From assembly GCF_013167455.1 (NCBI RefSeq), contig NZ_CP038328.1: DNA of 64,000 nucleotides. The stretch is one strand, 5' to 3'. Position numbers: made by a program. Source of the stretch: Escherichia coli O157:H7 (GTDB lineage: Bacteria; Pseudomonadota; Gammaproteobacteria; Enterobacterales; Enterobacteriaceae). Below are positions 33,001 to 54,000 of the stretch, piece by piece; within the stretch, counting starts at the first letter, position 1; every line of letters begins with the position of its first letter.

Positions 33001-36000
33001 AAGATATTTTCTTACGGCGTTCACCTGATGTGATCTACAGCATGTTATGCCTTCGTCATACAATCGTTATGTAACTAAGCAACTCATCACCTCTAAAAAT
33101 TATTCTTTGGTGTTATGGCGAGAATCGCGAACCCGGATTATTGTCAAAATATCAGCCTGACTCCCTTCTGGCTGCCAGCCCAAAAACAACACTGATAAAC
33201 GTGAATCCGAGGCAGATATGTTTCTAAACTATTTCGCGTTGGGAGTGCTGATCTTCGTCTTTCTGGTGATTTTTTATGGAATCATCGCGATACATGACAT
33301 CCCTTATCTGATTGCCAAAAAGCGCAATCACCCCCATGCCGACGCTATTCATACGGCGGGCTGGGTGAGCCTGTTTACTCTGCATGTTATCTGGCCGTTT
33401 CTGTGGATCTGGGCGACGCTCTATCAACCGGAGCGTGGCTGGGGTATGCAGTCACATGTTGCGTCGCAGGAGAAAGCGACTGACCCGGAAATCGCCTCAC
33501 TTTCTGACCGAATTTCCCGGCTGGAGCATCAACTCGCCGCCGAGAAAAAGACTGACTATTCCACGTTCCCGGAGATCTAATTATGGATCTATTGATTGTT
33601 TTAACTTACGTGGCGCTGGCGTGGGCGGTCTTTAAAATCTTCCGCATTCCGGTAAATCAGTGGACGCTGGCGACGGCGGCGCTGGGAGGCGTGTTTCTGG
33701 TGAGTGGTTTGATTTTATTGATGAACTACAACCACCCTTACACTTTTACCGCGCAAAAGGCAGTGATAGCGATCCCTATCACGCCACAGGTGACGGGAAT
33801 TGTTACTGAAGTCACTGACAAGAATAATCAGCTTATTCAAAAGGGCGAGGTGCTTTTTAAGCTCGACCCGGTTCGTTACCAGGCGCGAGTTGACAGACTT
33901 CAGGCTGACCTGATGACGGCGACGCATAATATAAAGACGCTGCGTGCGCAGCTCACTGAAGCGCAGGCCAACACCACCCAGGTTTCAGCGGAGCGCGACC
34001 GTCTGTTTAAAAATTATCAACGTTACTTGAAAGGCAGCCAGGCGGCGGTGAATCCGTTCTCGGAACGTGACATCGACGATGCGCGGCAAAATTTCCTCGC
34101 GCAGGATGCGCTGGTGAAAGGCTCGGTGGCGGAGCAGGCGCAGATCCAGAGCCAGCTCGACAGTATGGTTAACGGCGAGCAATCGCAGATTGTGAGCTTA
34201 AGAGCGCAACTTACTGAAGCAAAATATAACCTTGAGCAGACTGTCATTCGCGCGCCGAGCAATGGCTACGTTACTCAGGTACTGATCCGCCCAGGTACAT
34301 ACGCAGCTGCCTTGCCGCTGCGTCCGGTGATGGTCTTCATCCCCGAGCAAAAACGGCAAATTGTCGCCCAATTTCGGCAAAACTCGCTGTTACGTCTGAA
34401 ACCCGGCGATGATGCGGAAGTGGTGTTTAACGCGCTACCTGGGCAGGTGTTTCACGGCAAACTGACTAGTATTTTACCTGTCGTGCCAGGCGGTTCTTAT
34501 CAGGCGCAGGGGGTATTGCAATCATTAACGGTCGTGCCCGGCACGGACGGTGTGCTGGGAACCATTGAACTGGACCCTAACGATGATATCGATGCCTTAC
34601 CCGACGGCATCTACGCCCAGGTGGCGGTTTACTCCGACCATTTCAGCCATGTTTCGGTGATGCGGAAAGTGCTGCTAAGAATGACCAGCTGGATGCATTA
34701 TCTTTATTTGGATCATTGAGGGGGAGGGGGGAGATTATGGAACTTTGCTCCTTGTAAGGACTAATTATTTTTGCATATTACTTCATTAGCTGCGATGATT
34801 TTTCTTTAATATTCATTATGTTAATAAGTTCTGGATGAGTGTGCTCTCATTGGATTTTTTATCCGTCTTGTTCTGCCGCAGGATGAGACTATACATCGTC
34901 GAGATCGCAATGATGATATGAGTTGTTCCTCCTGCGACGGCTCTAATCAAAAAAGAGCAGGAGTGCTTTTCCATCTATTGCGATGATGGCTTTATTATCT
35001 GAAGGATGACAGTCACATTTAAAAAATATTTAATCTATAGATCACAATGTAGGGTCATGGAATATATGTATACAACTATTTTCTTCTTCACTTTTAATTA
35101 TCGTATTCATTATAAAACTAAGTTAAAAAACTCCTGGAGAGTGAGTTATTAATATATTTTTAAATGAAATTAAGTTATCATTCATCGATGCATTTTATAG
35201 AATCATCAATGGCCATAATAGTACTATTAACTCTCAATTTTATATTTTTATCATCACTACAAATATTAACTGAATTTATATCAATGATTTTTTTTATTCT
35301 TATCTTTTATTTTATTTACTGTTTCAATGCAATCAGCGGCAAGTTGGAGTGGATTTAGATTTTTCAGATATGGTCTTATGATCTTTCCCTTACTTAATAA
35401 ATAGCATGTATAGGATTCGGAAAGTCCAGCATCTATTTTGTATCTCATTATATTAGATAAGGATGTGAGAAATTCCTTGTTATCATTCGCAGCCATATAT
35501 GCCAGTCCGAGTTCAGCCTCTGCGGCCTTACAGGCAAAATAGCTTAGTGAACACGCTTTTCGTCCCTCTTTAGTACTGGCTGATATTAGTGCCCATAATA
35601 TTGCTTTGTCTGCCAAATCTAACTCTCTCTGAAATTGTCTTGCAGTAACTGCACTCGCAGAAATAGAGAAAAAAATACAATTGTTAATAACCTTGCCATA
35701 TTTTTTAGTCCGTAACTGTTAATGTGCTATCTGGCTCTGAAAATATTAACTCATTTAATTTTTGCATGTCATTAGATAAACCAGTTATACAACCCTCGGA
35801 ACAGAATCGAGGTCCTAAAGACGGACCAAAAGCGTTTAAACAACTATGTATTGAAAATCCATTGCGATTATAAGTTCCTGTATTAACTGACGGTACTAAT
35901 CGTATGCCGTCAGGTTTTCTATTGCTTGCTCCCGGGTCATTAACATTCCAACTCCATAGGCCTTGAGATATTGGCCATCTATTTATAAATGTGTACAACG

Positions 36001-51000: not shown

Positions 51001-54000
51001 AGCCTCCGTAAAGTCATCGGCGGCGGAACAAAAACAGATCCAGAGCCAGCTGGATAGCCTGGTGTTGGGTGAACATTCTCAAATCGCCAGCCTGAAAGCG
51101 CAGCTCGCGGAAGCAAAATATAACCTTGAGCAGACGATAGTGCGTGCGCCGAGCGATGGTTATGTGACCCAAGTGCTGATTCGTCCGGGTACCTATGCCG
51201 CGTCGCTGCCGCTACGTCCGGTGATGGTGTTTATACCCGATCAGAAACGACAAATCGTGGCGCAGTTCCGTCAGAACTCCTTGCTGCGCCTGGCTCCCGG
51301 CGATGATGCGGAAGTGGTATTTAACGCTCTGCCAGGCAAAGTGTTCAGCGGTAAGCTGGCAGCCATTAGTCCAGCTGTTCCCGGCGGAGCTTATCAGTCG
51401 ACCGGCACCTTACAGACGTTAAACACAGCGCCGGGTTCAGATGGCGTTATCGCGACCATTGAACTGAATGAGCACACTGATTTGAGCGCTTTACCAGACG
51501 GTATTTACGCTCAGGTGGCGGTCTACTCTGATCATTTCAGCCATGTCTCGGTGATGCGCAAAGTGTTATTACGCATGACCAGCTGGGTGCATTACCTTTA
51601 TCTCGATCATTAATCTTCGCTTTCCGCCGCTTGTTCAGGCCGCAGTTGCTGCGACTGAGCAAGCTGGTGGCGAATTTCACGCAGCATTTCATCCAGCACA
51701 TACTGGACCCGCCAGGGCTGGTATTCCCGTTTACGGAAGATAGCCACCAGATCCAGCCACCATTCATACGGGTGCTGAAAGCAGGGCACCAGCGTGCCGT
51801 CTTGCAGATCGCTCTGCACACTTTTGTCTGGCGCAAACACAATCCCCAGGTGATTTCGTGCCAGCTCCAGCGCCGATTGCGTGTTATCGCAAACGTAATT
51901 TCCCTTCACGCGATAATCCCGCACCTCTTTACTCCCGGCGACGTTGAAGCGCCAGATATTCGCGTCGTCGATCATCATCGAGTCGATCAAAATACAGGAG
52001 TGATGTTCGAGTTCGTCAGGACGGCTAATAGGATGTTTCTCAAGATAGCGCTGGCTGGCATAAGCGGTTACGGCATATTGGGTAATAAAACTGGCAACCA
52101 GCGATTCATCTTTTGGTGGGGCATAGCTGATTAAAACATCACAATCATCAGGAAATTCGACGCCTTCATAAAAGGCATTACGCTCAAGATTGCAGGTTTT
52201 TAGCGATAAGGTGATATCACCGATATCTTTAATTTTATCGATTACATGTTTGGATAAATAGGTAATTATGCCGGTTGGGGCGTAGATGGTGACCCGACCA
52301 CGTTTCTCATGCTTATAATCTGCAATAAAATTATTAAGCTGCTCGTTTCTGTCCAGCATGTCGTTGATGTACGGTAATAGCGCGGTGCCAAAAAGTGTGA
52401 GCATCAGTTGTCGGGTGGTTCGGTCAAAGACTTTTAAACCCACTTTTGATTCAAAATCAGCAAGATATTTGCTGACGTTGGCCTGTGCGATGCCAAGTAC
52501 AGTCGCGGCATGGCTGATATTTTCACTGGCAGCGATTACCGAGATAATTTTTAACTCCCGGTACTTAAGTTGTAATTTTGTCATCGCAACAGCCCAATTA
52601 TATATAATTTTATATATTACTATATAAATATGAATCTTGCACCGGAGAAATTGTAAGCATTACTATGCCGACTCTTTTTTATCTTATTTTAAAATGGAAT
52701 ACCGGACATGTTAATTAACCGCAATATTGTGGCGTTATTTGCGTTGCCTTTTATGGCAAGCGCAACTGCTTCTGAATTATCCATTGGTGCTGGTGCGGCT
52801 TATAATGAATCGCCTTATCGCGGTTATAATGAAAATACAAAGGCAATTCCGCTGATTAGTTATGAAGGTGATTCTTTTTATGTTCGTCAGACCACGTTAG
52901 GTTTTATTCTGTCGCAAAGTGAAAAAAATGAACTTAGCCTGACCGCATCCTGGATGCCGCTGGAATTTGACCCTGCCGATAATGACGATTATGCCATGCA
53001 ACAGCTTGATAAGCGTGATAGTACGGCTATGGCGGGGGTTGCCTGGTATCACCACGAGCGTTGGGGAACCGTGAAAGCCTCTGCAGCTGCGGACGTTCTG
53101 GATAACAGCAACGGCTGGGTGGGGGAGCTATCGGTATTCCACAAAATGCAGATAGGTCGTCTGTCGCTGACACCTGCGCTGGGCGTTCTCTATTATGACG
53201 AGAATTTCAGTGACTATTACTATGGCATTTCAGAGAGTGAGTCCCGTCGTAGCGGTCTGGCAAGTTATTCCGCGCAGGATGCCTGGGTGCCCTATGTCAG
53301 CCTGACGGCAAAATACCCGATAGGAGAGCACGTCGTATTGATGGCGAGCGCAGGATACAGCGAGCTGCCGGAAGAGATTACCGACAGCCCGATGATTGAT
53401 CGTAATGAGAGTTTTACCTTTGTCACCGGCGTGAGCTGGCGTTTTTAATTCACCGGTGGATGTCGGTGCGGCTGGCCTACGCTCTCGCACCGACTTGTAT
53501 GCCTGATAAGACGTGTTAAGCGTCGCATCAGGCAATGTGCTCCTTACGTTGGATGCGGCGCGAGTGCCTTATCCAACCTACGGATGGCAATGCTTTTCCT
53601 CATTCACCCAGATCCGCATTTCGCCTTCACCCCGGTTGGCCCAGCTAAACCACGGGATAAAGGTCAGAGTTTGCGTCTGGCGTTTGGCTGGCGCGCTGTC
53701 GTAATGCCACAGCGGTTGCTGCTCTGGATTGCTCTGTTCATACCGGTAACCCGGTGCCTGGATTAAGATCTTATGGCTAAACAATCCCTTGCCTTCAAAT
53801 GTCGTAAATGGCGCATCGGTGGGCAGCCACAGATTATGCAGTGACTCGCCGTTGTCGGCCTTTTCCAGGCAATACACCAGCGGGCCGCGCTGAATCGCCA
53901 CTTTTCCGGCGACGTGACGCACCAGCGGGTTACCGTAAACGCGGCGTACCGGCATCGGCAAAGTCAGATTCAGCGTATCGCCCTCCTGCCATTCGCGGGT

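Follow-up and report, generated by a model that had tools for sequence, protein, structure and literature searches.

Two DUF3302–adaptor operons in one window

The window analyzed here is a 64,000-nucleotide (64-kb) stretch of E. coli O157:H7 DNA, 100% identical to the sequence of E. coli O157:H7 EDL933. It contains two operons of the same build, with the DUF3302 gene first and the adaptor gene following 1–5 nt later: 2 nt separate the yibI stop from the yibH start, and 5 nt the yiaW stop from the yiaV start (Table 1). Our ORF calls place the pairs exactly where a preliminary description of this DNA had put them (yibI-yibH at 33218–34719, yiaW-yiaV at 50148–51613), both on the plus strand and, as it had said, some 17 kb apart (starts separated by 16.9 kb). 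RefSeq labels yibI and yiaW as DUF3302 and yibH and yiaV as HlyD family in EDL933, and starts yiaW at the ATG at 50148; the longest ORF reaches an upstream TTG at 50118. Between the two modules lie an Imm57 pseudogene, an RHS fragment, yibG, an RHS core, yibF, selA, selB, yiaY, fic and aldB.

Table 1. Coordinates of the two DUF3302–adaptor modules and neighboring features in the window
Feature	Coordinates	Strand	Description	Basis
yibI	33218..33580	+	120-aa DUF3302 inner-membrane protein	ORF call, Pfam PF11742, RefSeq WP_000479626.1
yibH	33583..34719	+	378-aa membrane-fusion (periplasmic adaptor) protein, EmrA/MacA-like	ORF, Pfam, Foldseek, hydropathy
intervening segment	34720..50147	.	outside module	RefSeq
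yiaW	50148..50471	+	107-aa DUF3302 paralog of yibI	ORF, BLASTP, RefSeq
yiaV	50477..51613	+	378-aa adaptor paralog of yibH	ORF, BLASTP, RefSeq
yiaU (LpsR)	51610..52584	-	LysR regulator, convergent with yiaV, 4-nt overlap	ORF, RefSeq
yiaT	52708..53448	+	MipA/OmpV-family outer-membrane protein	RefSeq, population data

Existing annotation already covers the yibIH and yiaWV genes and their paralogy, and both pairs are known, uncharacterized members of the y-ome; the literature on them agrees with the preliminary description that neither has an assigned function. A partner transporter is likewise lacking in the 64-kb window, which holds only mtlA, lldP and a sugar-type MFS gene beside GH127/AraC. 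E. coli retains the tightly coupled module of DUF3302 and EmrA-like adaptor in duplicate, never beside a pump gene, and this transporter-less module is a modest y-ome question that is sharpened here. When the surroundings of both modules were scanned for promoter and terminator consensus sequences, the counts were at or near the shuffle expectation (at most ~2.4 SD above it) and were therefore left out of the argument.

The paralogy of the two pairs and the strong similarity of the adaptors are upheld by alignment at both the protein and the nucleotide level. In BLASTP, YibI and YiaW share 85 of 113 residues (75% identity, E 2e-62) and YibH and YiaV 290 of 378 without a gap (77%, E 0), far beyond chance. 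The small proteins had been called near-identical, which is right for the membrane core (93% over residues 1–70) and not for the whole protein, since the C-terminal tails are 29–58% identical with an 8-residue gap. The module DNA aligns as a single 1,518-bp HSP at 69% identity, with homology running from -12 to the stop codon only and ending at coding boundaries; the longest exact runs are 26 and 23 bp. Third codon positions are 43–49% identical and synonymous sites are saturated (pS 0.78), with dN at 0.18 in the adaptor and 0.057 in the core of the DUF3302 protein. Purifying selection acts on both copies.

Architecture of the DUF3302 protein and its adaptor

YibI residues 3–78 match positions 1–76 of the 77 in the Pfam DUF3302 model (PF11742, E 3.3e-41). 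The predicted layout is a two-helix, N-out/C-out TM hairpin (conservation 0.94) followed by a variable coiled-coil-like tail (0.44). A fused YibI-(GGGGS)6-YibH construct was modeled with AlphaFold2 on a 33-row paired alignment, and the helices of YibI fall at residues 2–35, 41–68 and 90–112 in this model. Its moderate confidence (pLDDT 66, pTM 0.40) and an output that gives neither contacts nor PAE make it uninformative on the YibI-YibH interaction; it was rejected as an in-silico two-hybrid and used for secondary structure and fold search only.

YibH matches PF00529, PF16576 and PF13533 (HlyD/CusB domains) in Pfam, and both YibH and YiaV possess the lipoyl domain, β-barrel and inserted α-helical hairpin of the HlyD family (TC 8.A.1). 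The hairpin helices of YibH are modeled at residues 97–152 and 161–218 (~57 residues each, pLDDT 85–93). Where the HlyD family has one TM helix at the N-terminus, or a lipid anchor, YibH has two hydrophobic segments, residues 1–24 and 27–49, which hydropathy predicts to be TM helices and which are modeled as two helices with moderate pLDDT (53–62). Conservation in YibH is 0.93 in the C-terminal helix (RKxLLRxxSWxxY), 0.88 in TM1-2, 0.85 in the hairpin tip and 0.74–0.79 in the hairpin shafts. Within the hairpin, conservation peaks at the tip, YQRYxxGSxAxVNPFSExDIDxARQ; the R-x3-L-x6-S motif by which adaptor hairpin tips dock outer-membrane factors was not seen there by eye in its canonical spacing.

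The nearest NCBIfam families of the two adaptors are EmrA, MdtN and AaeA. YibH stays below the curated cut-off of each: 113.5 vs 390.8 bits for TIGR00998 (EmrA/EmrK), 110.9 vs 376 for MdtN (NF007785) and 75.1 vs 400 for AaeA (NF007850); YiaV scores similarly against the three families and is likewise below the cut-offs. The best match in both sequence and fold is EmrA of EmrAB-TolC (PDB 8zal, 8zar; Foldseek 7e-17 for 8zal), with which YibH and YiaV share an inner-membrane anchor, the lipoyl domain, the β-barrel, a long α-hairpin and the lack of a membrane-proximal domain. They differ from EmrA in having two predicted N-terminal TM helices rather than one, a conserved C-terminal helix and a DUF3302 partner, and in having no adjoining emrB-like MFS gene. 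MacA of MacAB-TolC is the second-best structural relative (Foldseek 2e-14), with a hairpin of comparable length; unlike MacA, YibH and YiaV have no nearby MacB-type ABC gene, and their N- and C-terminal membrane elements are different.

Age of the duplication and recombination between the copies

It had been proposed that the modules, as direct repeats, could mediate deletion or amplification of the intervening rhs/selAB/fic region. RecA-mediated recombination of this kind, deleting or tandemly amplifying the rhs-selAB-fic-aldB segment, would profit from the common orientation of the copies, the ~1.5 kb of homology, the 16.9 kb spacing and the dispensability of the intervening genes in the laboratory; moreover, the 26- and 23-bp exact runs come near the RecA minimal processing segment. 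Like the recombinogenic repeats of E. coli (rhs elements, IS copies, rrn operons), the modules are direct repeats of more than 1 kb on the same strand. However, those repeats are ~99% or more identical over kilobases, whereas the modules are only 69% identical with no exact run above 26 bp, and in mismatch-repair-proficient E. coli the frequency of recombination drops by orders of magnitude at 10–20% divergence. With 31% DNA divergence and saturated synonymous sites, the repeats are too diverged to drive loss or amplification of the intervening genes, or to shape genome structure.

The preliminary description had called for a population survey, and we used chimeric flanks to look for deletion and duplication junctions between the modules in 5,426 complete E. 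coli genomes. Neither was found (0/5,426 for deletion, 0/5,426 for duplication); recombinants are nil in these finished genomes, a survey that very rare or transient culture events could escape. Both modules are not equally frequent, yibIH being found in 5,383 of the 5,426 genomes and yiaWV in 3,769. The variation actually present in the region is IS-mediated, or presence/absence of rhs, or a separate indel of the yiaW-V-U-T block, which is missing from ~30% of the genomes. This indel is independent and does not touch selAB, yiaY, fic or aldB. We considered the loss of yiaWV as a product of paralog recombination and rejected it because these genes are kept, and yiaU and yiaT are lost jointly with yiaWV. 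Two truncations also proved to be IS events: H57, which keeps the first 90 nt of yibI and was examined as a yibI'-'yiaW hybrid, is really an IS5 (ISKpn26) deletion into rhsA, and H87, with the first 57 nt of yiaW, is an IS1-associated deletion. In an earlier report it is the Rhs genes, not yibIH or yiaWV, that are implicated in rearrangements (PMC2935791).

In a neighbor-joining tree the adaptors form two cleanly separated clades, one mtl-linked and one aldB-linked, and both contain Escherichia and Citrobacter. Since adaptors of one synteny class, rather than of one genome, group together, there has been no gene conversion between the copies on the Escherichia-Citrobacter timescale, and the duplication is older than the split of the two genera. 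Recombination between the modules is already largely refuted by the low identity, the missing junctions, the absent conversion and the nature of the losses observed, and we regard it as extremely improbable. Very probably, yibIH and yiaWV are ancient paralogs and not recombination substrates: they are two old paralogous operons, each maintained separately, and in no E. coli genome sampled have the copies recombined.

Gene neighborhood and candidate functions

The adaptor gene lies directly downstream of 68 of 73 DUF3302 ORFs, and four of the five exceptions run off the end of the locus. The initial homolog listing and contig scan covered nearly exclusively Enterobacterales, and distant loci were reached by a representative search and exact-sequence look-ups, several of which led to contigs too short for use; the pairing recurs in all seven distant long contigs. 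Throughout the Gammaproteobacteria, and in a distant metagenomic clade, DUF3302 plus adaptor forms an obligate unit. Beside the 68 gammaproteobacterial pairs there is no conserved third gene or transporter (68/68), and neither these pairs nor the 64-kb window show an operon with a transporter gene of the RND, ABC, MFS or ArAE type. Among 1,148 neighboring ORFs we found no OEP, RND or SMR homologs.

One reading of this arrangement, possible but rather doubtful in our view, is that the modules are orphan adaptors serving an unlinked inner-membrane transporter (MFS, ABC or ArAE/FUSC), with DUF3302 as a small accessory subunit in the manner of AaeX or AcrZ. The nearest families, EmrA, MdtN and AaeA, consist of adaptors for MFS and ArAE pumps, there are well-known examples of small membrane subunits in pumps, and in one distant locus an SMR gene on the same strand lies 118 nt upstream. 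AaeXAB (and YdhIJK) are also organized like yibIH and yiaWV, with the gene for a small two-TM protein preceding the adaptor gene, and AaeXAB has a LysR regulator nearby (AaeR), as yiaWV has YiaU. Unlike AaeXAB, where an ArAE/FUSC transporter comes third, yibIH and yiaWV have no transporter gene; adaptor genes normally share an operon with their pump, and a linked transporter is missing from all 68 gammaproteobacterial pairs and most distant loci. Nor is DUF3302 detectably related to AaeX/DUF1656: hhalign of the DUF3302 alignment against AaeX gave a probability of 0.1%, and we rejected the kinship. Finally, the membrane segments are the most conserved parts of both proteins, which suggests that they themselves form the core.

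We tentatively favor a mechanism built on such a core. The N-terminal TM helices and the C-terminal helix of the adaptor would pack with the DUF3302 hairpin, the adaptor would oligomerize like EmrA and MacA, and its conserved hairpin tip would dock an outer-membrane factor, which in E. coli would be TolC. The outcome would be an envelope-spanning conduit whose inner-membrane partner would be DUF3302 itself or else an unlinked transporter. In one distant locus, L090, the genes for DUF3302, the adaptor and an OEP (TolC-family) lipoprotein stand in one operon-like array; an OEP gene is linked in this one of the seven distant loci and in none of 76 gammaproteobacterial loci. The rarity of this link and the mild or absent knock-out phenotypes count against the conduit mechanism, and we know of no precedent for a two-TM protein as the sole energized component of a pump, which weighs against it too. 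The putative docking to TolC may well be wrong on present evidence, though it is a serious candidate, and the stronger version, a self-contained envelope-spanning class in which a DUF3302/YibH-type TM bundle is the inner-membrane component coupled to a TolC-family channel, is unlikely. As a whole, ancient separate paralogous operons combined with an adaptor/DUF3302 conduit docking an outer-membrane channel form the best explanation, and one that we consider reasonably probable.

A role outside transport appears quite improbable. If it served envelope architecture or stress responses, for instance as a periplasmic scaffold anchored in the inner membrane that affects outer-membrane or peptidoglycan integrity, the module would fit its envelope-related neighbors: yiaT (MipA/OmpV) and the LPS regulator YiaU (PMC9068703), and genes for a DUF3313 lipoprotein and YahO/BhsA-like and PqiB-like proteins. 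It would also fit the deletion phenotypes: a reported rise in the efficiency of Ca2+-mediated transformation for yiaW, cited in PMC12844161, and lower fitness in urine and lower adhesion for yibI (PMC5404293). These neighbor associations are, however, limited to lineages, and the tripartite-pump adaptor fold with its long hairpin and conserved tip, as well as the OEP gene in one locus, speak against a scaffold. YiaU is co-inherited with yiaWV throughout the aldB-linked synteny class. We considered it as a regulator of yiaWV and set this aside: one systems study gives yiaT and the waa operon as its targets, with yiaV and yiaW absent (PMC9068703).

Knock-outs of the yibIH and yiaWV genes have otherwise had mild phenotypes or none, and yibH has served as a neutral integration site (PMC5852967, PMC5495878). 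Should the modules prove to be a conduit to TolC, or the adaptor of an unlinked pump, they would be a new component among envelope-spanning systems, which might account for the mild urine-fitness and permeability phenotypes of the yibI and yiaW mutants.

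Paralogy and divergence of the two gene pairs

The window is from E. coli O157:H7, and its 32000-52800 segment matches EDL933 and many further O157 chromosomes at 100% identity. In the ORF listing all four genes lie exactly where the preliminary description had placed them, and RefSeq names YibI a DUF3302 domain-containing protein, YibH a HlyD family secretion protein, YiaW a DUF3302 protein and YiaV a HlyD family member; the pairs are real and correctly placed, yet annotated already. Both are on the plus strand with 16.9 kb between their starts, and they enclose the frameshifted Imm57 gene, the RHS fragment, yibG, the RHS core gene, yibF, selA, selB, yiaY, the Fic gene and aldB. 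Their paralogy is far beyond chance: YibI and YiaW are 75% identical (85/113, E 2e-62), and YibH and YiaV align gap-free along their full 378 residues at 77% identity. The small proteins had been called near-identical, which is true of the DUF3302 membrane core (93%, residues 1-70) but not of the diverged tails.

At the DNA level the modules, that is, DUF3302 gene plus adaptor gene, align as a single 1,518-bp HSP of 69.1% identity, in which the two longest exact runs are 26 and 23 bp. Since homology extends only from approximately 12 nt 5' of the start codon to the stop codon, the flanks are unrelated. Synonymous sites are saturated, with a proportional difference of 0.78 in both genes, third-codon-position identity is 43-49%, and dN between the yib and yia copies stands at 0.18 in the adaptor and 0.057 in the DUF3302 core. 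The duplication is old, and only purifying selection on the proteins has kept the copies alike. Exchange by RecA in E. coli requires tens of bp of perfect identity and, in cells with active mismatch repair, becomes rarer by orders of magnitude once sequences differ by 10-20%; for modules that differ by 31% a negligible exchange rate is expected.

Population survey and age of the duplication

We surveyed complete E. coli genomes for deletions between the pairs using a chimeric query made of 1.2 kb from the mtlA side of yibI and 1.2 kb from the yiaU side of yiaV, the halves counting as joined only if no more than 1.7 kb apart, as expected in a yibIH x yiaWV deletion. While 5,425 of the 5,426 genomes matched the query, none joined its halves (0/5,426 with a deletion junction). 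A tandem-duplication query, combining the aldB side of yiaW with the region downstream of yibH, likewise found no junction in the 5,426.

At a coverage of at least 80%, yibIH is present in 5,383 of these genomes and yiaWV in only 3,769, the latter being missing from about 30%. The yiaW-yiaV-yiaU-yiaT block acts as a single presence/absence unit. Paralog recombination as the source of yiaWV loss was considered and rejected: a Nissle-derived genome, with the order mtlA-yibI-yibH-yibF-selA-selB-yiaY-fic-aldB-sgbE, retains everything between the paralogs apart from the rhs element. It lacks the entire yiaW-V-U-T block, and aldB directly abuts sgbE/araD; this absence is an independent indel. Two partial losses, an IS1 after nt 57 of yiaW and an IS5/ISKpn26 after nt 90 of yibI with a deletion reaching into rhsA, are both IS-mediated.

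A scan of species-representative genomes yielded 76 loci. Two synteny classes are stable among them, mtlR-mtlD-mtlA / pair / yibF-selA-selB (36 loci) and selB-yiaY-aldB / pair / LysR-yiaT (10 loci); besides these there is a Buttiauxella variant, and beyond Enterobacteriaceae the contexts vary. The neighbour-joining tree of the adaptors cleanly separates the two classes, with Escherichia and Citrobacter in each. Because both genera occur in both clades, the duplication is older than their split, and the yiaWV-less state is therefore a derived loss; because the tree splits by synteny class, gene conversion has not evened out the differences between the copies. Divergence, 5,426 genomes and phylogeny all contradict the proposal that the repeats drive deletion or amplification of the genes between them, and the paralogous-repeat finding as posed is ordinary. 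Two Enterobacteriaceae-like DUF3302 loci labelled 'Chryseobacterium sp. 18061' (L048; 72% identity, mtl synteny) and 'Rhizobium tropici' (L077; 67%) are probably contaminated or mislabelled assemblies.

A DUF3302-adaptor module and its missing transporter

What remains of interest is the transporter-less pairing of DUF3302 protein and adaptor. YibI matches Pfam DUF3302 over the full model (E 3e-41); the family has no NCBIfam model, is seldom mentioned in the literature searched and is small (816 clusters at 50% identity). YibH has HlyD/CusB adaptor domains. Its top NCBIfam scores, to EmrA/EmrK, MdtN and AaeA, are far under the cut-offs (~113 vs 376-391 bits), and in the PDB both sequence and fold place it closest to EmrA of EmrAB-TolC (Foldseek 7e-17) and to MacA. 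The AlphaFold2 model shows confidently predicted hairpin helices, each of ~57 residues (pLDDT 85-93), along with a pair of helices at the N-terminus and one at the C-terminus, and hydropathy likewise predicts two N-terminal TM segments. The adaptor gene directly follows 68 of 73 DUF3302 ORFs in the fetched loci, with a 1-5 nt gap or a 4-nt overlap, and four of the five unpaired ORFs run off the DNA end. Pairing also holds in 7/7 long contigs of a distant, mostly metagenomic clade, whose adaptors are ~30% identical to YibH end to end, have N- and C-terminal motifs in common with it and differ mainly in hairpin length.

As had been noted, the window holds no partner transporter: there is nothing efflux-like across its 64 kb. 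Neither the 76 loci nor the distant-clade contigs show a conserved transporter gene next to the pair, and the 1,148 ORFs lying up to 8 kb from it in the 76 loci include no OEP, RND or SMR homologs. DUF3302 has no detectable relatedness to AaeX. One distant-clade locus (L090), whose adaptor has the shortest hairpin in the family, is the only one with a TolC-family lipoprotein (OEP) gene downstream, 24 nt away on the same strand; a separate RND operon lies further downstream on the opposite strand. In another distant locus an SMR gene precedes the pair by 118 nt. Recurrent, lineage-restricted neighbours are LysR regulators, a YahO/BhsA-like protein, a PqiB-like protein and, directly upstream, a DUF3313 lipoprotein (Pfam E 3.5e-46; loci L060, L066, L072 and L075), which may be a lineage-specific third component. 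Its gene adjoins the DUF3302 gene on the same strand in Biostraticola, Serratia grimesii and Enterobacter sp. kpr-6 and on the opposite strand in Yersinia rohdei; in L066 and L072 it is 40-80 nt upstream.

Conservation, taken as mean major-residue frequency over 33 fused YibI-YibH pairs, is highest in the YibI TM hairpin (0.94, 45/70 positions invariant); next come, in YibH, the C-terminal helix (0.93), the TM1-TM2 segment (0.88) and the hairpin tip (0.85), while free variation is seen in the hairpin shafts (0.74-0.79) and the YibI tail (0.44). Unlike in ordinary adaptors, where to our knowledge the membrane anchor serves only as a tether, the conserved unit here is built around its membrane elements. 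The best-supported reading combines three steps: the adaptor TM pair and C-terminal helix would form an inner-membrane assembly with the DUF3302 hairpin, the adaptor would oligomerise as in EmrA and MacA, and the conserved tip would engage an outer-membrane factor, TolC in E. coli and the linked OEP in L090. The inner-membrane bundle could be the translocating or energising element itself, or could recruit an unlinked transporter.

Published data and neighbouring features

Both yibH and yibI are among the uncharacterised y-ome genes (PMC11551758), and yiaV is TCDB 8.A.1.1.4, an uncharacterised MFP (PMC10971958). In UPEC UTI89, yibI is induced by urine, and a yibI deletion mutant has a urine competitive index of 0.33 and adheres less well (PMC5404293). 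Macrophage-evolved E. coli acquired an IS1 insertion in yiaW that, when rebuilt, had no effect in the sole assay used, phagosome maturation (PMC5495878). Deletion of yiaW is described by a citing paper as raising Ca2+-mediated transformation efficiency (PMC12844161), yibH has served as a neutral integration site (PMC5852967), and YiaU (LpsR) regulates yiaT and the waa operon in a study that leaves yiaV and yiaW unmentioned (PMC9068703).

Coordinates of the gene pairs and neighbouring features
Feature	Sequence	Position	Strand
yibI-yibH	window	33218-34719	+
Frameshifted Imm57 immunity pseudogene and orphan RHS C-terminal fragment (internal stop), downstream of yibH	window	35178-36289	-
Fic-family gene between yiaY and aldB	window	46662-47957	
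REP-like palindromic repeats (GCCGGATAAGGCG...GCATCCGGC), aldB-yiaW intergenic region	window	49640-49730	
Small ORF, aldB-yiaW intergenic region	window	49822-49986	-
yiaW-yiaV	window	50148-51613	+
yiaW-yiaV-yiaU-yiaT block	window	50148-53448	
Convergent yiaV/yiaU, coding overlap 4 nt	window	51610-51613	+/-
GH127, MFS transporter, AraC regulator	window	53578-58400 (approx.)	
DUF3313 lipoprotein gene	L066	7254-7922	
DUF3313 lipoprotein gene	L072	7289-7960	
DUF3302 / 316-aa YibH-type adaptor / TolC-family OEP lipoprotein, tight same-strand array	L090 (metagenomic contig)	7001-9678	

Transcriptional interference may act at the yiaV/yiaU overlap, a candidate site for it; the ExcludonFinder paper (PMC12288877) mentions yiaV. 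The Imm57 pseudogene and RHS fragment have the appearance of toxin/immunity tips displaced from the rhs element next to them. The Fic-family gene is a strain-variable insertion of ~1.3 kb, present in O157 and the Nissle-derived genome; in strain CFSAN064036 (L003), without it, yiaY is followed directly by aldB. The GH127, MFS transporter and AraC regulator genes of O157 replace the yiaK-S/sgb operon of other strains, leaving a truncated IclR (yiaJ) remnant, and this stretch is a hotspot of gene-content variation. The small aldB-yiaW intergenic ORF matches a hypothetical-protein gene annotated in other strains.
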